Assembly (NCBI GenBank): GCA_964619505.1
Contig: CAZUCK010000005.1
Coordinates: 10,300-74,299, forward strand
DNA from: an uncultured Fimbriimonas sp.
Lineage (GTDB): Bacteria > Armatimonadota > Fimbriimonadia > Fimbriimonadales > Fimbriimonadaceae
Length of the DNA stretch: 64,000 nt
Direction: 5' to 3'
This document shows positions 1 through 41,436 of the stretch, piece after piece. A program made the translations under genes and the position numbers. The notes under the pieces are model-generated. The model was not told the origin of the DNA and made no database searches. It saw nothing but the letters and a program-made list of their open reading frames with translations. Positions within the stretch are counted from its first letter, which is position 1. Each line of letters begins with the position of its first letter.

Positions 1-1250
1 GGCAATGCGGGCCTGTAGACCGCAGAAGCCACCAGTTTCGCCGCCGATTTCCCATCCTTCGGCGAGGCGGCTTGGCCGATCTCCAAGGTCACGCCGCCGT
101 TGGCGTTGAACCTTCCTGACATCCAGTCTGCTGCCTTGGCGAGAAGTCGTTGACGCACGAGTCCAACGTTGTGGGCAGTGGATGGCAGGATGATGCCAAA
201 TCCGGTTTCGCCGTACCGGGCAACCACGTCGAGTCGACGCAAATTGTCCTTGAAGAACTCGGCGGCATCGGACAGGAAGTCGATGACACTCTGCTCTCCG
301 TAGAATCTGCGCATCCCTTCGAGGCCGGTGAACCGAATCATGACAAGGGCGACGTGGGTCTCGTTGCTCGCTGCCCTGTGGAGCTCTTCTTGCAGCCTGC
401 TGTTGAAATAGCTCTCCGTGTAAGCGCCCGTCGCCGCATCGATCACGTCGTAGTCGATCGCGCTCGTCTGGCGTCGCAGCACGCGATCCTTCTCTTCTTC
501 CGCAGTCAAAATCTTTCGCAGCTTGGCAAGCGACTGTCGCAAGATGTGGGACACGTAATTGCAGGAGATCCCGAGCTGATTGGCGATCTCCGTTTGGTTC
601 ATCGCTTCGAAATGGAACAGAAGCAAGACCTGTCGCTCCAGGTCGCGCAACTGCCGCATCGCCTGCTCCAACAGCACGCGGTCCTCCACGCTGAGCTGCT
701 CTGGGCAGAATGCAGAGGCATCGAGTTTTTCAACTTCGCTCGACCCGTCGTCTTCACTTTGAGCCGGCAGGTCAAGTGAGGCCACGCGCAACATCTCTTG
801 CGTTTGGTAGACCTCTTGGACCGCAGATTCACTGATGCTGAGTTCGTCGGCGATTTCACGTTCGGTCGGAGTTCGCCCAAGCGATTGTTGGAGCATGTTG
901 GACGTGCGATTGACTTTGTGTCTGAGCTCTTGCAGCCAAGCGGGGTGTCGAATGATTTGAGATCGGTCGCGCAGATAGTGCTTTATCTCGCCCGCGACGA
1001 GATAAGTCGCATACGTGTTGAACCGAACACCGGCTTCGGGGTCAAATTTTGTCAGCGCATTCAGAAGGCCGATGAAGCCGACCTGCACGAGATCTTCGAA
1101 CGGCTCGATGCCGCTGAACCTTCGAGCGATTCGCTCGACGAGGTTCGCGTATTGAACCATGATCAGATCTTTGAGATCGGGTTTCGGATCCCTCAGATAA
1201 CGCAACACCAGACCTTCCGTGTCCTGGTGCAATCCTGTTTGCTCAGACAT
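1..1250 (-). CDS. RNA polymerase sigma factor (group 3, SigB/SigF-like) fused to a C-terminal degenerate GGDEF-like domain; partial, 3' end runs off the left edge
   Basis: Hand translation of the minus strand from ATG 1250..1248 gives MSEQTGLHQDTEGLVLRYLRDPKPDLKDLIMVQYANLVERIARRFSGIEPFEDLVQVGFIGLLNALTKFDPEAGVRFNTYATYLVAGEIKHYLRD (sigma region 2). Further on comes NQTEIANQLGISCNYVSHILRQSLAKLRKIL (region 4 HTH). Without any stop it continues into DVIDAATGAYTESYF...VALVMIRFTGLEG...RRLDVVARYGETGFGIILP (GGDEF fold). The frame is open to position 1, so the gene is absent from the ORF track. ORFs 150..779(+) and 798..1613(+) are its antisense shadows. Confidence 0.8.
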   Translation of the reverse strand, partial: MSEQTGLHQDTEGLVLRYLRDPKPDLKDLIMVQYANLVERIARRFSGIEPFEDLVQVGFIGLLNALTKFDPEAGVRFNTYATYLVAGEIKHYLRDRSQIIRHPAWLQELRHKVNRTSNMLQQSLGRTPTEREIADELSISESAVQEVYQTQEMLRVASLDLPAQSEDDGSSEVEKLDASAFCPEQLSVEDRVLLEQAMRQLRDLERQVLLLFHFEAMNQTEIANQLGISCNYVSHILRQSLAKLRKILTAEEEKDRVLRRQTSAIDYDVIDAATGAYTESYFNSRLQEELHRAASNETHVALVMIRFTGLEGMRRFYGEQSVIDFLSDAAEFFKDNLRRLDVVARYGETGFGIILPSTAHNVGLVRQRLLAKAADWMSGRFNANGGVTLEIGQAASPKDGKSAAKLVASAVYRPAL

Positions 1251-1306
1251 ACTCACTCCGTTGATCGCCTTGGCCGACGTTCCTCGTCGACCTCAATTCC
1301 CGTTCC

Positions 1307-1325
1307 GGCTTCCATCCTGGAAGCC
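1307..1325 (-). other. perfect hairpin GGCTTCCA-TCC-TGGAAGCC in the 108-nt spacer between pilC and the sigma gene (possible attenuator or processing site; no U-tract)
   Basis: An 8-bp perfect inverted repeat with a 3-nt loop, read directly from the sequence. It lies about 33 nt beyond the pilC stop on the minus strand. Confidence 0.3.
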
Positions 1326-1358
1326 ACCTTCCTACCCTTTTGCCCTAGCCCCGTCGCG

Positions 1359-2564: not shown

Positions 2565-2738
2565 GTTACTTGTCAGCTCCCTGGGTGAACGCACCGTGCG
2601 CGCTCCAGTAAGACAATTCTCGGTCTGGCGCTTCCATATTCCAACGAGGTTTCACAGGTTCTTTGAAAAAATCCTGTTGAAAGCTTCAAAAAGCATCGTG
2701 CGGGCACCATGCCGTTTCGTGGTACGGTTCCAAAAGAG

Positions 2739-3800
2739 ATGAGCTTTCTACGTCTTGCGGTGATCATGGCCGGCGGATCCGGCGACCGGTTTTGGCCCCT
2801 CTCCCACGCCACGCGACCCAAGCAACTGCTCAAATTGACGCACCCCGAACAAACGCTTCTACAAGAAGCAGTCCAACGGCTTGCTCCCCTCATCAGTAAG
2901 GATCGGGTCCACATTGCTTCGACCCAACTGCTTGAGTCAGCCATTAAGGCCCAACACTGCGTACTGCCCGACAACGTCATCACGGAGCCCGACAAGCGCA
3001 ACACGCTCGGATGCCTCTCCTGGGTCGCAGCTAACTTGATTGCGAAGTATCCCAAAGAACCCATCTCTCTCGCGGTGTTCCCGACGGACCAAAAGATAGG
3101 CAACGTGGCCCTATTTCGAGACACGGTGAACAAGGCGCTCGTCATCGCCGAACAGACGGGCAACCTCGTGACGATCGGGATTCGGCCGCAGCGGCCGGAA
3201 ACGGGATTCGGTTACATTGAAGTGCCCGACGCGGCGAGCATCCGCGAGCCCCAGAAAGCGAAGCGTTTCCACGAAAAACCCACGCTGGAACGAGCTCAAC
3301 TCTATGTGAAGAGCGGCGCGTTCCTTTGGAACAGCGGGATGTTCTTCTGGCGGCTGGATTCGTTCATGAACGAACTGAAAGCGGCTCAACCCGAAACCCA
3401 CGCAATCATCGAAAAGATGGCCAACGCCATGAAGTTAGGAAAGGACAAATTGGCGGAGGAGTTGTTCAAGCAACTGCCCAGCCAGTCCATCGATCAGGCC
3501 CTTATGGAAAATTCCAAGAACGTATTCGTAGTGCCCGGCGAGTTCCCATGGGATGACGTCGGTTCGTGGGACTCCCTGGAGCGCTCTTTTGAGAGGAACG
3601 CGGATGGAAACGTGGTTCAGGGCAAGGTCTTTGCCGTCGACACAGGTGGCTGCGTGCTTGTGAACGAGAGCAATCAAAAAGTGGGTGTTCTTGGCGTCTC
3701 GGACCTCGTCATCGTCGTTTCCCAGGACGGAATCCTCATTTGCCACAAGGACCGAGCTCAAGAGGTAAAGATCATCGCCCAAGAGTTCGAAAAGGAGTGA
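2739..3800 (+). CDS. manC: mannose-1-phosphate guanylyltransferase (short form, no PMI/cupin domain)
   Basis: ORF 2709..3800. The N-terminal nucleotidyltransferase motif LAVIMAGGSGDRFWPLS...PKQLL and the later FGYIE and WNSGMFFW are typical of ManC/CpsB. ATG 2739 is preferred because it gives the normal short leader before the GGSG loop; 2709 is possible. Confidence 0.85.
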   Translation: MSFLRLAVIMAGGSGDRFWPLSHATRPKQLLKLTHPEQTLLQEAVQRLAPLISKDRVHIASTQLLESAIKAQHCVLPDNVITEPDKRNTLGCLSWVAANLIAKYPKEPISLAVFPTDQKIGNVALFRDTVNKALVIAEQTGNLVTIGIRPQRPETGFGYIEVPDAASIREPQKAKRFHEKPTLERAQLYVKSGAFLWNSGMFFWRLDSFMNELKAAQPETHAIIEKMANAMKLGKDKLAEELFKQLPSQSIDQALMENSKNVFVVPGEFPWDDVGSWDSLERSFERNADGNVVQGKVFAVDTGGCVLVNESNQKVGVLGVSDLVIVVSQDGILICHKDRAQEVKIIAQEFEKE

Positions 3801-3883
3801 CGACCGCACTCTCCGCCAGCGTGACGCCCCTTTCACGTCACAATGGGTGCTTCAGGGCCTCCCAAGGGATCAATCGTTAGGGA

Positions 3884-4618
3884 ATGAGCGTTACGGAAGA
3901 CAGGATGCACAAGCCGGAAGAGTCAGCGCGCGCCGAGGTGTCCGTTCTCGTGCCCGCGCTCAATGAGGAAGACAGCATCCGACAGGTGATTGAGCGCGTG
4001 CTCGCCATCCCCATGAAGGTGGAGGTCATTGTGATCGATGACGGCAGCAGCGACACAACCGCTGAAATCATGAGAAGTTTCGAGGACCGCATCATCGCCA
4101 TCCACAATGAACGCCGCCAAGGGAAAGGAGCTGCCATCGTCAGGGGATTGGCAAAGGCCACTGGCCGGGCGGTCATCATTCAAGACGCCGATCTGGAGTA
4201 TCTCCCGGAAGAAATTCCCTCCGTCGTGAACCCAATTCTCGAAGGCAAGGAAACCGTCGTCTACGGCACACGATTCTCGAGTGGCATGCCGACGTCCATG
4301 GCCCTACCCAACAAAATCGTCAACATCCTCCTCGCCTGGGCCGTACGCCTCCTTTACTGGCGCCGCGTGACGGACGAAGCCACTTGCTACAAGGCATTTC
4401 GCCTCGACGTGATCAAGGGCATGGACCTCCAATGCCAGCGATTCGAATTCTGCCCCGAGGCGACCGCCAAAGCGATCCGCATGGGCCAGCACATCCTAGA
4501 AGTGCCCATCTCCTACACGGCTCGGACAACTCTCGAAGGTAAAAAGATCCGGTGGACTGACGCGCCACACGCTTTCCTGACCCTAATGCGTTACCGGCTC
4601 TGGAAGCCGGAGAAGTGA
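3884..4618 (+). CDS. family 2 glycosyltransferase (polyprenol-phosphate sugar transferase-like)
   Basis: [26 protein letters not shown] and IIQDADLEY (DxD) are GT2/GT-A signatures. An AGGGA Shine-Dalgarno-like motif lies before the ATG. Confidence 0.85.
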
Positions 4619-4671
4619 CTCCCCGAATAACCCGGCCTTAACCCGCTCGCCGGTACAATGGCTTTCGTCTT

Positions 4672-5736
4672 ATGAAAGCTCTCATCCTCGCAGGCGGCAA
4701 AGGCACCCGGCTTCGCCCCATCACTTTTTCCATGGCCAAGCAACTTGTGCCCGTGGCCAATAAGCCTGTCATCGAGTACGGCATCGAAGCCATCGCCGCC
4801 GCAGGAGTCAAAGATTTCGGCATCATTGTCGCCGACACGGCAAAAGCGATCGAGGAAGTGGTTGGGGACGGATCCAGATTCGGCATCAAGGTCACCTACA
4901 TTCCCCAGCCTGACCCTTTGGGCCTTGCCCACGCGGTCGCCACGGCCAAAGATTTCCTCGGCCACGATGACTTCATCATGTACCTTGGGGACAACATGAT
5001 CAAGTCGAGCCTCAGCGACCTCGTCTCTGAGTTCAAAGACCCGTCCGTTGCCGCCACGATCCTCCTCACACCTGTTCCAAACCCCTCCGACTTCGGCGTT
5101 GCCGAGCTCAAAGACGGCATAGTGTCAAGGCTGCAGGAGAAGCCCAAAGATCCAAAGTCCAATCTCGCCCTTGTCGGCGTCTATCTGTTCCGTGAATCCA
5201 TCCACGATCACATCGCCCATTTGAAGCCAAGCGCACGTGGAGAATTCGAAATCACGGACGCCATCCAATCCCTTGTGGACGGCGGCCTCAACGTTCACTC
5301 CCATATCGTCCAAGGATGGTGGAAGGACACCGGCACCGTCGAAGCCATGCTGGAGGCGAACCGACTCATCCTGGAAGACATGCCGACCGACATTCAGGGC
5401 CAAGTTGACGAGGATTCGCGCATCGAAGGGCGAGTCGTGCTCGCAAAAGGGTGCAAGGTCGTCAACAGCGTCATCCGTGGCCCAGCCGTCATCGGCGCGA
5501 ACTGCCATATCGAGAACAGCTATATCGGACCCTTCTCCGCCATCGACTCCGGCACGACCCTCAAAGATACGGAAATCGAATACTCCATCGTCCTTCAGGA
5601 CTGCGAGCTCGTAAGGCCGGGGGCACGCATCGAAGCGTCCCTGATCGGGCGCGGGGCGAAGGTCGGACACGCCGAAAGCGTGCCGAAATCGATGCAGCTC
5701 GTCCTCGGCGACTCCAGCCAAGTCACGCTGCCATGA
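4672..5736 (+). CDS. sugar-1-phosphate nucleotidyltransferase (RmlA-like glucose-1-phosphate thymidylyltransferase, long form with C-terminal left-handed beta-helix)
   Basis: MKALILAGGKGTRLRPITFSMAKQLVPVANKPVIEY is the classic G-x-G-T-R-L loop. The C-terminal third has hexapeptide-like repeats (VVNSVIRGPAVIGANCHIENSYIGP...). Confidence 0.85.
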   Translation: MKALILAGGKGTRLRPITFSMAKQLVPVANKPVIEYGIEAIAAAGVKDFGIIVADTAKAIEEVVGDGSRFGIKVTYIPQPDPLGLAHAVATAKDFLGHDDFIMYLGDNMIKSSLSDLVSEFKDPSVAATILLTPVPNPSDFGVAELKDGIVSRLQEKPKDPKSNLALVGVYLFRESIHDHIAHLKPSARGEFEITDAIQSLVDGGLNVHSHIVQGWWKDTGTVEAMLEANRLILEDMPTDIQGQVDEDSRIEGRVVLAKGCKVVNSVIRGPAVIGANCHIENSYIGPFSAIDSGTTLKDTEIEYSIVLQDCELVRPGARIEASLIGRGAKVGHAESVPKSMQLVLGDSSQVTLP

Positions 5737-5743
5737 GTGAGCA

Positions 5744-6901
5744 ATGAAAGCCGATCTGCTTGTGATCAGCGCCTCTTCGGGCGTGGGCAAGTGTGAGCGA
5801 GTCGCCTTCCAGATCGCAAAACATCTTCATGATCGTGGCCATAGGGTGCAGACCCTCATCAAAGCGCCGGTTCAAAAACGGGAGTTGCTCTCTTGGTACA
5901 GCAAAGAGCAGATTCCCATTGCCCTCAGTCAGCACATTAAGCCTTTGAAGCCGGGCGGAACGTTCACCAGCATGCTGGCCCTGGCGATGAAGATTCAGCG
6001 CTGTGCCCCAAAAGCGGTCAGCCTCCACAATCCCGACAACACCATCTCCTGGACGGACGTCGCAGCCTGCCGCCTCGCGGGCGTCAAGAAGGTGATCGTG
6101 TCGGTGCACCATCCGATGGACGCGGAGTTGATCTCGCGGAAATGGCAGCGCAGCACCAAGATCGCGGCAAATTATGCGGACTTCGTCGCCGTCACGTCGC
6201 CTGCTCTAGAGGCGAGCCTTCTAGAGATCGGCGTCTCTGACAAAAAGGTCGTGGTGATCCCTCTCGGAATAGAGGTGCCTGATGGCGGCCCAGACCGGGC
6301 TCGGGCACGCGCCCTCCTCAAGATTCCGAAAGACGCCTTCATCGTCGGCAGCATGGCCAAGCTCTCGCCTGAAAAGCGCTTTGACCAACTGATCCGCGCT
6401 TGCGCGGCGTCGAAAGAATTCAAGAAGAGCGGCCACCTCGTGATCGGCGGCGATGGCGTCGAGCGACCACGTTTGCAGCCGCTCGCCGAAAAGCTTCTTC
6501 CCGTTCAACACACGTTCCTCGGCCGCGTCGCAGACCCCGCACAGTTCTTCTCCGCTTTGGATCTGTTCATCCTCCTGTCCGAGAACGAGGGGTTTGGACT
6601 CGTGTACACGGAGGCGGGGGCTTATGGAGTCCCCAGCATCGGCTGCGACACGGGTGGCACCCGTTTCGCCATTTTGGAAGGGGAGACTGGCTTCCTCGTA
6701 CCCGTCAACGAGCCGGAACAGATGACGACCAAGCTGGACTTCGTGATGCAGGACGCGATGATTCGGCACCAGTTGGGCGCGAACGCGAAAGCTTTCGCGG
6801 AAAAGAATTTCGGGATGAAGAAAATGGTCGACGCCTACGAGAAGATTTTGGGCCTCGCCGAGCCGACAGTGAGGAAGGATCGAAGAAAGGTTTCGTACTG
6901 A
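5744..6901 (+). CDS. family 4 (GT-B) glycosyltransferase
   Basis: The C-terminal half has the GT4 pattern LSENEGFGLVYTEAGAYGVPSIGCDTGG...ETGFLV (EX7E-type motif). Confidence 0.85.
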   Translation: MKADLLVISASSGVGKCERVAFQIAKHLHDRGHRVQTLIKAPVQKRELLSWYSKEQIPIALSQHIKPLKPGGTFTSMLALAMKIQRCAPKAVSLHNPDNTISWTDVAACRLAGVKKVIVSVHHPMDAELISRKWQRSTKIAANYADFVAVTSPALEASLLEIGVSDKKVVVIPLGIEVPDGGPDRARARALLKIPKDAFIVGSMAKLSPEKRFDQLIRACAASKEFKKSGHLVIGGDGVERPRLQPLAEKLLPVQHTFLGRVADPAQFFSALDLFILLSENEGFGLVYTEAGAYGVPSIGCDTGGTRFAILEGETGFLVPVNEPEQMTTKLDFVMQDAMIRHQLGANAKAFAEKNFGMKKMVDAYEKILGLAEPTVRKDRRKVSY

Positions 6902-7044
6902 GCTCTATTGAACACATGGTCATTGACAATGTTATGACCGATGGATGAGCAAGCTTTTGTTGCTATCCGTCAGTGGCGCCGTTGAAATTTCTTCGGCCAA
7001 GCCCTATCTCAGGACCAACCGGCTCACGAGGAGGTTTCTCCCGG

Positions 7045-8874
7045 CTACTCCACCGTCACCGACTTCGCCAGGTTTCGCGGTTGGTCGATCTCGCACCCGT
7101 TCATGCGCGCCACGTGGTACGCAATCAGTTGGAGTGGGATCACCGACAGCAAGGCGTTTAGGAATTCGAACTTTGTGCGTGGAATTTTCAGGACATGGTC
7201 GACCGCCTTCTCGACGTTACTGTCGGCCTCCAAAGTGACGGCAATGACGGTGCCACCCCGTGCCTGAACCTCCTTCATGTTGCTGATCGCCTTTTCGGCG
7301 ATCGCGGGATCGGTTGCGCCAAAGATCGCGACAACCCCGGGGTTCACCAGGGCCAGGGGGCCATGCTTCATTTCGCCGGCGGGGGATTCCTGGGTCGGGA
7401 TATAGGCCAATTCTTTAAATTTCAGAGCCCCCTCCATTGCGACGTAAGCGTCCGCGCCGCGACCAAGGAAGAAGCAGAGGGGCGTGCTCTTGATCTCCTC
7501 GCAGAGTTTGATTATTTCGGGCTCCAGCTTCAGGATTTCGGCCGCTTTCTGGTCGAGGGTGCGAAGCTCGTCCACCCACTCATGCACCCTGATGCCAGGT
7601 GATTCCTGCACTTGGGCGATGTGAAGGGCAAGCAGGGTCAGGACCATGACCTGCGCCATGTAAGCCTTGGTGCTGGCCACGGAGATTTCGGGGCCCGCCT
7701 GGGTGAAGATGGTGCGGTCGCATTCCCTTGCAATGCTGCTGCCGACCACGTTGACGATGCCAAGCGTTCGGATTTTGCGCTCCTTGCAAAGGCGCAAGGC
7801 GCTCAAAGTGTCAAGCGTCTCTCCCGACTGGCTCACAAAAATGGCGAGCGACCGGGGCGACAGGACGGGGTCGCCGTAACGGAATTCGCTCGAATAATAC
7901 ACGTCGCAGGGCAGCCGCAATAGCTTTTCGAACAGGTGCTTGCCCATCAGGCCCGCGTGGAACGCGGTGCCGCAGGCGATGATGTTGACGCGGTCGATCT
8001 CCGCCCACACATGCTCGCTGAACACTCGGTCCAGCCGTACGTCGACCTGGTCGTCGATCCGACCCGCGATGCTCTGGCGGATGACCTGCGGTTGCTCGTG
8101 CATCTCCTTGCGATAGAAGTGCTCATAGCCGCCGCGCTCGGCGGCCGCGATGTCCCATTCGATGTGCTGAGCCTTGAAGGGCACTGGCTTGGCATCTTTG
8201 TCGATAATGCGGACCTCTTCCTTCGTCAAGATCGCCAAATCCTGTTCTTCCAAGATGACCACTTCACGGGTGTATGGGAGCAAAGCAGGAATGTCGCTCG
8301 CCAGCAGGTTCTCACCTTCTCCCAAACCGATGACGAGTGGGCTGGAGTTGCGCACGGCCACGATTTTTCCGTCTTCGCGTTTGGACACCACGACAAGGGC
8401 AAACGCGCCGCGCAGGCGCTTCACGCCCAGCCGAACGGCTTCTTCGAGAGGTACGCCCTTGGAGTACTCCTCACCGAGGACGTGCGCCGCCACTTCTGTG
8501 TCGGTCTGTGACCTGAACTTGTGGCCCTTCGCCGAGAGTTCGTCCCGCAACTCCTGGAAGTTTTCGATGATTCCGTTGTGGATGATCGCCACTTGTTCAT
8601 AGGCGTCGTAATGGGGGTGGGCGTTGATGTCGGTCGGTCCGCCGTGGGTGGCCCACCGTGAGTGGGCGATGGCCATATGCGCGCTCAGGGGCTTCTCGCT
8701 GAGCAGCTTCCCGAGTTCCGTCAGCTTGCCCGCGCGCTTGACGATGGAGATCTCGCCGTTGTTCCGGTAGGCGATGCCCGCGCTGTCGTATCCGCGGTAT
8801 TCAAGGCGTTTGAGTTGATCGAACACCACGTCGACCGCATTTTTGGGGCCGACGTATCCGGCAATGCCACACAT
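7045..8874 (-). CDS. glmS: glutamine--fructose-6-phosphate aminotransferase
   Basis: Starts MCGIAGYVG (N-terminal catalytic Cys). Has two SIS domains (SQSGETLDT) and a conserved C-terminus ...NLAKSVTVE. Length 609 aa. Confidence 0.97.
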   Translation of the reverse strand: MCGIAGYVGPKNAVDVVFDQLKRLEYRGYDSAGIAYRNNGEISIVKRAGKLTELGKLLSEKPLSAHMAIAHSRWATHGGPTDINAHPHYDAYEQVAIIHNGIIENFQELRDELSAKGHKFRSQTDTEVAAHVLGEEYSKGVPLEEAVRLGVKRLRGAFALVVVSKREDGKIVAVRNSSPLVIGLGEGENLLASDIPALLPYTREVVILEEQDLAILTKEEVRIIDKDAKPVPFKAQHIEWDIAAAERGGYEHFYRKEMHEQPQVIRQSIAGRIDDQVDVRLDRVFSEHVWAEIDRVNIIACGTAFHAGLMGKHLFEKLLRLPCDVYYSSEFRYGDPVLSPRSLAIFVSQSGETLDTLSALRLCKERKIRTLGIVNVVGSSIARECDRTIFTQAGPEISVASTKAYMAQVMVLTLLALHIAQVQESPGIRVHEWVDELRTLDQKAAEILKLEPEIIKLCEEIKSTPLCFFLGRGADAYVAMEGALKFKELAYIPTQESPAGEMKHGPLALVNPGVVAIFGATDPAIAEKAISNMKEVQARGGTVIAVTLEADSNVEKAVDHVLKIPRTKFEFLNALLSVIPLQLIAYHVARMNGCEIDQPRNLAKSVTVE

Positions 8875-34706: not shown

Positions 34707-34794
34707 TGGAGGAGAGAAGGGGATTCGAACCCCTGAAGGTTTGACCCTTAGCGGTTTTCAAGACCGCCGCAATCGACCACTCTGCCATCTCTCC
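34707..34794 (-). tRNA. tRNA-Ser (anticodon UGA), CCA encoded
   Basis: Hand fold of the minus strand: acceptor GGAGAGA/TCTCTCC; 3-bp D stem GCA/TGC; anticodon stem GCGGT/ACCGC with loop CUUGAAA (anticodon UGA); long variable arm AAGG-GTCAAA-CCTT; T arm AGGGG-TTCGAAT-CCCCT; discriminator U, then CCA. Confidence 0.93.
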
Positions 34795-40869: not shown

Positions 40870-41436
40870 ATGCTGATTCGACCCAAGACAAAGGAAACCG
40901 ACCCAGATCTTGAGAATTTGCATGTAGGCGACTTAGAGGTTACGGAAGAGGGCGTGCACGAAACGGGGGCAGAGCCTCCGAGTCAAGCGGGAGCTGCGGT
41001 TGCCGTCGTGCTCGCGATGTTTTATCTTCTTCGGGCGTTTGAATTTGCAGCCATTTACGGTTACACATTGCACTTTGCTTCCCAGCCGGGGAGGGTGCTT
41101 GATCTTCGGTGGGTCGTGGCGGCCTATTGCGTTTTGGCTACTGGGCTCCTTCTCATCGCACCCAGGTTCACCGCCTGGTTTGCTCCTGGAAATGGGTGGC
41201 GTGTAGGCAGGCTCGCACTCGTCAGTTTGGGCTTTTACTTGTTTTCGCTGAGCGTGCAGCCCTTGATGCTCCTAGCCATCGGCCTGCCACCGAGTGGCCG
41301 AGCGAACAATGTTTTTGCCACCTTCATGGACCCGGATCAGGCGACTTACGCTCCTGCCGTGCTGGGGCTTGCGATCTTGCTGATCATGGGGGTCGCAATG
41401 CGGATGGCCGTTTCGCACCCCGAGCCTGAAGAATAG
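40870..41436 (+). CDS. hypothetical integral membrane protein
   Basis: 188 aa with an acidic N-terminus followed by about four hydrophobic helices. No recognisable family. Confidence 0.45.
   Translation: MLIRPKTKETDPDLENLHVGDLEVTEEGVHETGAEPPSQAGAAVAVVLAMFYLLRAFEFAAIYGYTLHFASQPGRVLDLRWVVAAYCVLATGLLLIAPRFTAWFAPGNGWRVGRLALVSLGFYLFSLSVQPLMLLAIGLPPSGRANNVFATFMDPDQATYAPAVLGLAILLIMGVAMRMAVSHPEPEE

Follow-up and report, generated by a model that had tools for sequence, protein, structure and literature searches.

A group-3 sigma factor fused in frame to a degenerate GGDEF domain with a conserved I-site, encoded beside pilC in Armatimonadota

Genes and features of the locus

The DNA considered here (the window) is a stretch of 64,000 nucleotides from an uncultured Fimbriimonas sp. 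of the phylum Armatimonadota, contig CAZUCK010000005.1, positions 10,300 to 74,299 of the forward strand. The gene in question lies at its left edge on the minus strand and encodes a sigma factor that continues in the same frame into a degenerate GGDEF domain (sigma-dGGDEF). GGDEF domains are the catalytic fold of the cyclases that make the second messenger c-di-GMP (cyclic dimeric guanosine monophosphate), and the I-site is the allosteric c-di-GMP site of cyclases such as PleD. An earlier interpretation made from the letters alone, here called the sequence-only reading, had described a frame of at least 416 codons from ATG 1250, overlooked by the open reading frame (ORF) list and situated directly downstream of pilC. 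The translation is indeed free of stops from ATG 1250 to window position 1 and comprises 416 codons, the gene is missing from the list because its frame runs off the window end, and the adjoining gene is a T2SSF/PilC gene. The start ATG 1250 agrees with the N-termini of all close homologs. The homologs retrieved in a word-indexed protein cluster search are mostly 418–428 aa long, and therefore only about nine C-terminal residues fall outside the window. The features of the locus are listed in Table 1.

Table 1. Features of the sigma-dGGDEF gene, its leader and the pilC region (positions in the window; residues in the fusion protein)
Feature	Position	Strand	Description
sigma-dGGDEF gene	1..1250	(-)	First 416 of ~425 codons; 3' end beyond window position 1
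Sigma region 2, residues 33-97	960..1154	(-)	PF04542 Sigma70_r2, 58.8 bits; numerous residues invariant family-wide
Sigma region 3, residues 108-171	738..929	(-)	PF04539 Sigma70_r3, 48 bits; followed by disordered acidic r3-r4 linker
Sigma region 4, residues 197-246	513..662	(-)	PF04545 Sigma70_r4, 47 bits
Connector, residues 247-269	444..512	(-)	Predicted: last sigma 4.2 helix prolonged into GGDEF domain
Degenerate GGDEF domain, residues 270-410	21..443	(-)	PF00990, 64.5 bits, E=1.3e-17
R292	375..377	(-)	= PleD R313, secondary I-site arginine cross-linking GGDEF domains
R306			= PleD D327, metal binding
R314			= PleD N335, guanine binding
I323			= PleD D344, guanine binding
RRLD, R338-D341	228..239	(-)	= PleD R359xxD362, primary I-site; gapless alignment
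GETGF, residues 347-351	198..212	(-)	= PleD GGEEF 368-372, active site, degenerate
R368	147..149	(-)	= PleD R390, third primary I-site residue
pilC-sigma intergenic leader	1251..1358	(-)	GGA-loop hairpins and TCAACGGAGTGA box
Hairpin, loop AGGAU	1326-1306	(-)	
Hairpin, loop AGGAA	1292-1272	(-)	
Conserved box TCAACGGAGTGA	1264-1253	(-)	Contains the Shine-Dalgarno sequence
pilC, T2SSF platform protein, 411 aa	1359..2594	(-)	First gene of the unit; PF00482, E=6.5e-62
Bipartite promoter-like signal	2616..2646	(-)	CGTTGG 2646-2641, 17-nt spacer, CCGAGAAT 2623-2616

Domain composition of the fusion protein

Sigma half: Regions 2, 3 and 4 all score above their Pfam cutoffs, and region 1.1 and the non-conserved region are absent, which is the composition of a group-3 sigma factor. 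The best NCBIfam model for the fusion is the SigB/F/G model TIGR02980, at 187.9 bits against a curated cutoff of 234.35, and the second best is a SigF model. The sigma half is thus related to the SigB/SigF/SigG subfamily and lies outside TIGR02980 by the NCBI threshold. The FliA/WhiG model TIGR02479 reaches 128.6 bits, under its cutoff of 189.6. The closest solved sigma factors by sequence are Staphylococcus aureus SigB (112 bits) and sigma F (99.8 bits). Membership in the extracytoplasmic function (ECF, group 4) class was rejected on the presence of region 3. The recognition helix of region 4, ISCNYVSH (I228-H235), is invariant in an alignment of 91 family members that spans the two branches described below at 36–91% identity. 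These matches bear out the group-3 assignment of the sequence-only reading.

GGDEF half: The domain match stands well above the PF00990 gathering cutoff of 23.8 bits, and a phmmer search of the PDB with the fusion protein also matches GGDEF domains. All the strings that had been quoted as landmarks of the fold occur in the translation: the linker TAEEEKDRVLRRQTSAIDY covers residues 249-267, DAATGAY residues 271-277, VALVMIRFTGLEG residues 300-312 and RRLDVVARYGETGFGIILP residues 338-356. Within the connector, L248 and E252 are at least 90% conserved in the 91 sequences.

Loss of the active site and retention of the I-site

The fusion was compared with PleD, whose sequence and numbering were checked against the PDB. 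BLASTP gives a gapless alignment of 91 residues, from V269 to beyond F351, in which RRLD-VVARY-GETGF of the fusion has spacing identical to RAID-LPCRY-GGEEF of PleD. The equivalence of R368 and PleD R390 was obtained through the HMMER alignment to the Thermotoga maritima GGDEF structure 4urs and the PleD numbering.

Active site: The PleD residues D327, D329, K332, N335, D344 and E370/E371 are replaced in the fusion by R, T, E, R, I and T/G. The loss of both acidic residues in GETGF had been pointed out before; the comparison extends it to the other catalytic residues and to the whole family. In the close clade, the GGDEF position varies among GETGF, GLTGF, GKTGF and NSTGF, and RRLD is invariant there. 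Divergent members were sampled as 63 cluster representatives of 27–58% identity. None of the 63 contains GG[DE]EF, and their metal- and guanine-binding positions vary freely. Judged by these residues, the GGDEF half is predicted to be catalytically dead and unable to make c-di-GMP.

I-site: The RxxD motif five residues before the GGDEF position, proposed earlier from its PleD-like spacing, is invariant in the 91 sequences. Two further I-site arginines of PleD, which the sequence-only reading had not mentioned, are equally invariant in the fusion family (R368 and R292). The only invariant residues of the GGDEF half are T274, R285, E288, R292, R338, D341 and R368. Among the divergent representatives, D341 is retained in 61 of 63, R338 and R368 in 57 each, and R292 in 56. 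Just five residues of the C-terminal half are at least 90% conserved at 27–58% identity, namely R338, D341, R368, P397 and L406. This pattern suggests that selection dropped the enzyme and kept the allosteric c-di-GMP-type site together with R285 and E288; binding of c-di-GMP by the retained I-site would be the best explanation of it.

The first GGDEF helix also carries a charged stripe of invariant or near-invariant residues, R285, E288, E289 and R292 (window ~375-398, minus strand). It shares a face with the R313-equivalent arginine, reaches further than the canonical I-site, and could form a larger surface for a ligand or a partner.

Distribution and reality of the fusion

A word-indexed search with the full fusion returned 1090 protein clusters with E<=1e-10, of which the top 120 are 66–91% identical, 394–467 aa long, and all have Sigma70 r2/r3/r4 and GGDEF; the named sources among them are Fimbriimonas or Fimbriimonadaceae. 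An exhaustive profile search added about 60 clusters at 50% identity that cover both halves, with scores from 650 to 160 bits. A profile built from the divergent members recovered a second, divergent branch of 1109 clusters with the same architecture, whose named sources are Armatimonadota, Chthonomonadales and Chthonomonadaceae. Both branches together comprise more than 2000 protein clusters with an in-frame sigma-GGDEF fusion. Among species-representative genomes, at least 280 encode a relative; the best 80 of the 280 are full-length at 58–90% identity, and nearly all of them are labelled Fimbriimonadales or Armatimonadota. The closest relative (L001) is from a Fimbriimonadales metagenome-assembled genome (MAG) and is 90% identical. 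The sigma-dGGDEF architecture is therefore phylum-wide in Armatimonadota and not rare.

Assemblies from NCBI, JGI, ENA and Logan independently agree on the fusion. Because the same in-frame fusion recurs across hundreds of genomes, a hidden frameshift or a chimera is excluded, and the single-gene reading of the window stands. A decaying relic, a pseudogene or an assembly artefact, which the cut at the contig edge and the degenerate motif might suggest, is refuted by this recurrence and by a domain held at 58–90% identity across the order with invariant residues, and its probability is negligible.

Cultured species of the phylum include Fimbriimonas ginsengisoli and Chthonomonas calidirosea. 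Searching with the C-terminal domain alone (word-indexed) gave only partial fragments of the same family and no independent architectures. In databases, the family is labelled only 'sigma-70 family' or 'sigma-B factor'.

Two members bear labels from outside Armatimonadota, a 'Methyloversatilis discipulorum' MAG (L080) and a 'Chloroherpetonaceae bacterium' MAG (P0317). The non-coding regions of the former are nearly identical to those of an Armatimonadota locus (L075), which makes mis-binning likelier than horizontal transfer. In a longer subgroup of 427–559 aa, the former GGDEF position is interrupted by an insertion ('..PGLHF'; P0205, P0209, P0213, P0217, P0218, P0229, P0230, P0233 and P0234), and most members of the subgroup keep RxxD and the R368 equivalent. 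A Pfam GGDEF match at E<=0.001 is found in 51 of the 63 divergent members, and the '..PGLHF' subgroup probably accounts for most members that have none.

Predicted structure

AlphaFold2 (AF2) models were obtained with a shallow alignment of 32 sequences and a deep one of 91. Both halves fold confidently, with a predicted local distance difference test (pLDDT) score of 77.6 and 80.9, respectively, and the predicted template modelling (pTM) scores are 0.38 and 0.40. The linker between regions 3 and 4 has pLDDT <50 for residues 152-186. A single continuous helix joins region 4.2 to the GGDEF fold in both models (residues 230-264 in the first and 230-269 in the second). As modelled, it resembles the stalk helices that precede the GGDEF domains of cyclases. 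Foldseek matches the model to SigB and other sigma structures and to the T. maritima GGDEF domain 4urs_A (TM score 0.74; root-mean-square deviation 3.1 over 148 columns). Neither of the two monomer runs docks the GGDEF domain confidently on sigma 2 or sigma 4. The auto-anti-sigma packing on regions 2/4 raised in the sequence-only reading thus finds no support, because neither run gives a confident inter-domain arrangement.

Promoter-like signal and GGA-hairpin leader

Promoter-like signal: The signal in the window ends 21 nt before the GTG of pilC. The element CC[GA]AnAA[TCA] is present upstream of pilC in 58 of 69 loci, mostly 7–37 nt before the start codon, and the element is preceded, at a distance of exactly 17 nt, by a second conserved block. 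The downstream box occurs as CCGAGAAT, CCGACAAT and GCCGATAAC. The -10 consensus of sigma-28/WhiG promoters is GCCGATAA, and by sequence the three variants resemble that element. With a position weight matrix (PWM), the pilC site scores 26.5, the next-best site of the window reaches 11.7 and shuffled sequences reach at most 20.8; the pilC site is the only one above chance in the 64 kb. Across 1.24 Mb of sampled loci, pilC promoter sites make up 47 of 52 strong PWM matches; as the PWM was trained on those same pilC sites, this specificity is partly circular. Autoregulation of the pilC-sigma promoter by the fusion sigma factor is possible.

Leader: Neither a sigma-70 promoter nor a terminator was found between pilC and the sigma gene, and the leader has no matching Rfam family. 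A further GGA, in CGGAG, overlaps its Shine-Dalgarno sequence, and with at least two GGA motifs in hairpin loops it has the layout of a CsrA-type target. Hairpins with a GGA loop, most commonly AGGAU, are present in 63 of 78 loci, against 25.2 +/- 3.8 in dinucleotide shuffles; with stems of at least 5 bp there are 54 loci, against 12.9. One hairpin lies about 45–52 nt before the start codon, and all seven of its stem pairs show double changes. By explicit pair counting, its stem covariation is 0.438 versus 0.186, a value that none of 500 shuffles reaches and that slid registers approach only up to 0.211. RNAalifold predicted no structure on the leader alignment. The arrangement of the leader is the usual one of a CsrA/RsmA-type translational operator, and translation is probably gated by the GGA hairpins. 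No CsrA was found by tblastn with E. coli and B. subtilis queries in the window and 86 loci (~1.24 Mb), which at ~17 kb per genome is too little to be informative. The literature searched has no CsrA-type description for such a leader.

Linkage to pilus genes and wider surroundings

pilC is directly upstream of the fusion gene on the same strand, at a distance of 60–240 bp, in about 75 of 82 loci, and the exceptions are mostly truncated contigs. In two deep-branching members (L084 1-7344; L086 462-7242), the fusion gene is the last of a secretin (pilQ)-PilB-(PilT)-PilC cluster. The N-terminus of the L086 PilB, RVGDVFVREGLITAEQLDEAVEKQ, has by eye a c-di-GMP-binding MshEN motif with conservative substitutions, and the L084 PilB copy is without the first Arg of this motif; a strict MshEN pattern search gave no match. 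Besides pilC, the 64-kb window contains no other pilus genes or pilin motifs. Fimbriimonas is fimbriated and non-motile and has many pseudopilin genes (PMC4072686). A search of the supplements of the F. ginsengisoli genome paper gave no match to 'fliA' or 'GGDEF'. From the linkage to pilC and pilus clusters, the output of the sigma factor is likely to be genes related to type IV pili or fimbriae.

Divergent from pilC, window 2709-8874 contains sugar-nucleotide and glycosyltransferase genes (two NTP_transferase, GT2 and GT4/GT1), and a convergent GlmS-like gene at 7045-8874 comes after them. The cluster may be a surface polysaccharide locus that adjoins the pilus/sigma unit solely in this genome; the context of locus L081 differs from it. 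The sole Rfam/ARAGORN match in the window is a tRNA-Ser (anticodon TGA) at 34707-34794 on the minus strand.

Comparison with known systems

PopA-type receptors: That a degenerate GGDEF domain whose RxxD is intact can serve as a c-di-GMP receptor is established, with PopA as precedent (PMC12564702), in agreement with the class named in the sequence-only reading. Like receptors of the PopA, PelD and SgmT type, the fusion has a dead GGDEF domain with RxxD five residues before the former motif, and in its case binding is predicted. Their outputs are a REC adaptor, a membrane scaffold or a histidine kinase, whereas that of the fusion is a sigma factor. SgmT reportedly has its degenerate-GGDEF c-di-GMP receptor domain at the C-terminus of a signalling protein, and the receptor domain of the fusion is C-terminal as well. 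In the position of RxxD and in its R390- and R313-equivalent arginines, the fusion has the I-site sequence of such domains.

PleD and WspR: The fusion aligns without a gap between the DxLTG turn and the GGDEF position, matches R359, D362, R390 and R313, and likewise has a helical stalk before the domain. PleD is an active enzyme in which the I-site inhibits catalysis, while the fusion has no catalysis to inhibit. With nothing left to inhibit, the target of its I-site would have to be the fused sigma factor or partner molecules.

RsiG-WhiG: In Streptomyces, the availability of a group-3 sigma factor depends on c-di-GMP acting in trans (PMC7005675). This was the sole documented case found of c-di-GMP control over a sigma factor, as the sequence-only reading had supposed, and its target is of the same group as in the model for the fusion. 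RsiG is a separate anti-sigma factor whose repeated E(X)3S(X)2R(X)3Q(X)3D motif binds c-di-GMP, whereas the fusion has a covalent presumed receptor of GGDEF type. The RsiG motif has no match in the fusion; elsewhere in the window it matches once, in isolation, in an ORF of 65 aa near 41029. An RsiG-like mechanism was rejected because the motif is missing from the fusion protein.

ECF sigma factors: The 'one-component' sigmas of the ECF41/42 type belong to group 4, lack region 3, and have C-terminal SnoaL-like, TPR or similar extensions. Like the fusion, they have their own regulatory domain after region 4 and need no separate anti-sigma factor. Their extensions are not known to be receptors of nucleotide second messengers, and, unlike them, the fusion has region 3 and is SigB/F-like.

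Synechocystis SigF: This autoregulated group-3 sigma factor serves pilA1/type IV pilus genes and motility and drives a pilin promoter (PMC2532724). It is of the same group and SigF type as the fusion but without a C-terminal domain, and the promoter it uses, TAGGC / GGTAA, is unlike the CGTTGG-N17-CCGAGAAT signal upstream of pilC.

The fusion combines known modules and principles in an undescribed way. The literature searches turned up no account of a sigma-GGDEF fusion. The statement that no characterised sigma/c-di-GMP-receptor fusion is known thus stands; the architecture, which might have proved both common and already characterised, is common, and a characterised example was not found.

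Proposed mechanism and alternative explanations

Taken together, the evidence leans towards a one-component, c-di-GMP-responsive group-3 sigma factor that is co-transcribed with pilC, gated by a GGA leader and linked in its output to pili. In this model, the N-terminal ~250 residues would form a functional sigma factor of group 3, nearest the SigB/SigF type, and its region 4.2 helix would pass through a rigid helical stalk into the C-terminal dead GGDEF domain. c-di-GMP, probably as an intercalated dimer, would contact R338, D341 and R368 in one protomer and R292 in a second, in the manner of PleD. The ligand would bridge a GGDEF domain to a second one or to some other surface. Bridging would change the sigma factor's geometry or oligomeric state, and with it access to core RNA polymerase, holoenzyme formation and promoter use. 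At high c-di-GMP, sequestration seems somewhat likelier than activation, by analogy with the immobilisation of PleD and WspR and with RsiG-WhiG. pilC and the sigma gene would be co-transcribed from the conserved sigma-28-like promoter, possibly under autoregulation, and translation of the sigma factor would be gated by the GGA-loop hairpins of the leader. The output would be genes related to type IV pili or fimbriae. Whether the fusion is the first sigma factor to sense a nucleotide second messenger itself, with c-di-GMP at the I-site directly switching holoenzyme formation or promoter use and with an extra CsrA-like translational gate, is nearly an even question and leans slightly towards no.

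A source of the ligand is plausible, since at least one canonical RxxD-GGEEF cyclase is encoded in the Fimbriimonadales DNA that was sampled. In a Fimbriimonadaceae genome (L014 10705-12666, minus strand), a 654-aa protein with RPYD-LAGRY-GGEEF is encoded about 1.5 kb from the fusion gene. By its motifs, it is likely an active, product-inhibited cyclase.

Several observations weigh against this model. The inter-domain and quaternary information in the AF2 models is not confident (pTM 0.38-0.40), and two divergent members have no adjoining pilus genes. Apart from five weak sites, no extra copies of the promoter rise above chance in the 64-kb window and the locus flanks, and the regulon, pilus genes included, is therefore conjecture. 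A few divergent members have H, S, P or Q at R338, and the subgroup with the insertion at the GGDEF position has no Pfam GGDEF match, so that the mechanism may not be universal. The single canonical GGDEF protein comes from one genome fragment, in a sample of 1.24 Mb of loci. The I-site residues could also be conserved for protein contact or for a different ligand.

Protein contact is the better placed of these two alternatives, and is unlikely. The dead GGDEF domain would here be a nucleotide-independent module for protein-protein interaction or dimerisation, with the Arg/Asp patch as a protein interface; possible partners are an active cyclase, the pilus platform or ATPase, or an anti-sigma-like protein. 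GGDEF domains usually follow a dimerising helical stalk, and a helical stalk is predicted in both AF2 runs. The R285/E288/R292 stripe on one helix is wider than the canonical I-site, and the tight pilC linkage could mean a physical partnership. However, the conserved residues are exactly the four c-di-GMP contacts of PleD at identical spacing, and the remaining domain surface drifts. RxxD is not required for the GGDEF fold either, and many GGDEF domains are without it.

A pocket that senses another guanine nucleotide, such as pGpG, 3'3'-cGAMP, (p)ppGpp or GTP, is improbable. Its case is that the site is tied to c-di-GMP by sequence comparison only, and some degenerate GGDEF domains, for example Caulobacter PdeA, sense GTP at the former active site. 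In the fusion, however, the GTP-binding positions (PleD N335, D344, D327 and E370/E371) are all lost and variable, and the active-site pocket is therefore not maintained; a GTP sensor at that place was rejected for the same loss. The constellation of RxxD and R390 is not known to bind anything but c-di-GMP or closely related cyclic dinucleotides.

Residual catalysis at a non-canonical active site, whether it yields c-di-GMP or some other product, has only fold membership in its favour and is hardly credible: the metal-binding acids, the guanine-binding Asn/Asp and GG[DE]EF are absent and not conserved in the family, and an active cyclase was rejected on GETGF and on R306, R314 and I323.

Significance

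c-di-GMP reaches transcription through dedicated transcription factors, riboswitches and one anti-sigma factor. If the c-di-GMP-responsive model is true, the fusion would tie c-di-GMP to the promoter choice of RNA polymerase more directly than any link so far, and the chain of receptor, anti-sigma factor and sigma factor would be collapsed into one polypeptide. It would extend the 'one-component sigma' idea from ECF to group-3 sigma factors. The architecture is conserved and mechanistically suggestive, and the biochemical core, which is predicted from sequence, is directly testable in a small domain with defined key residues. For the Armatimonadota, a widespread and barely studied phylum, it would provide a first handle on gene regulation and on the control of pili and fimbriae.

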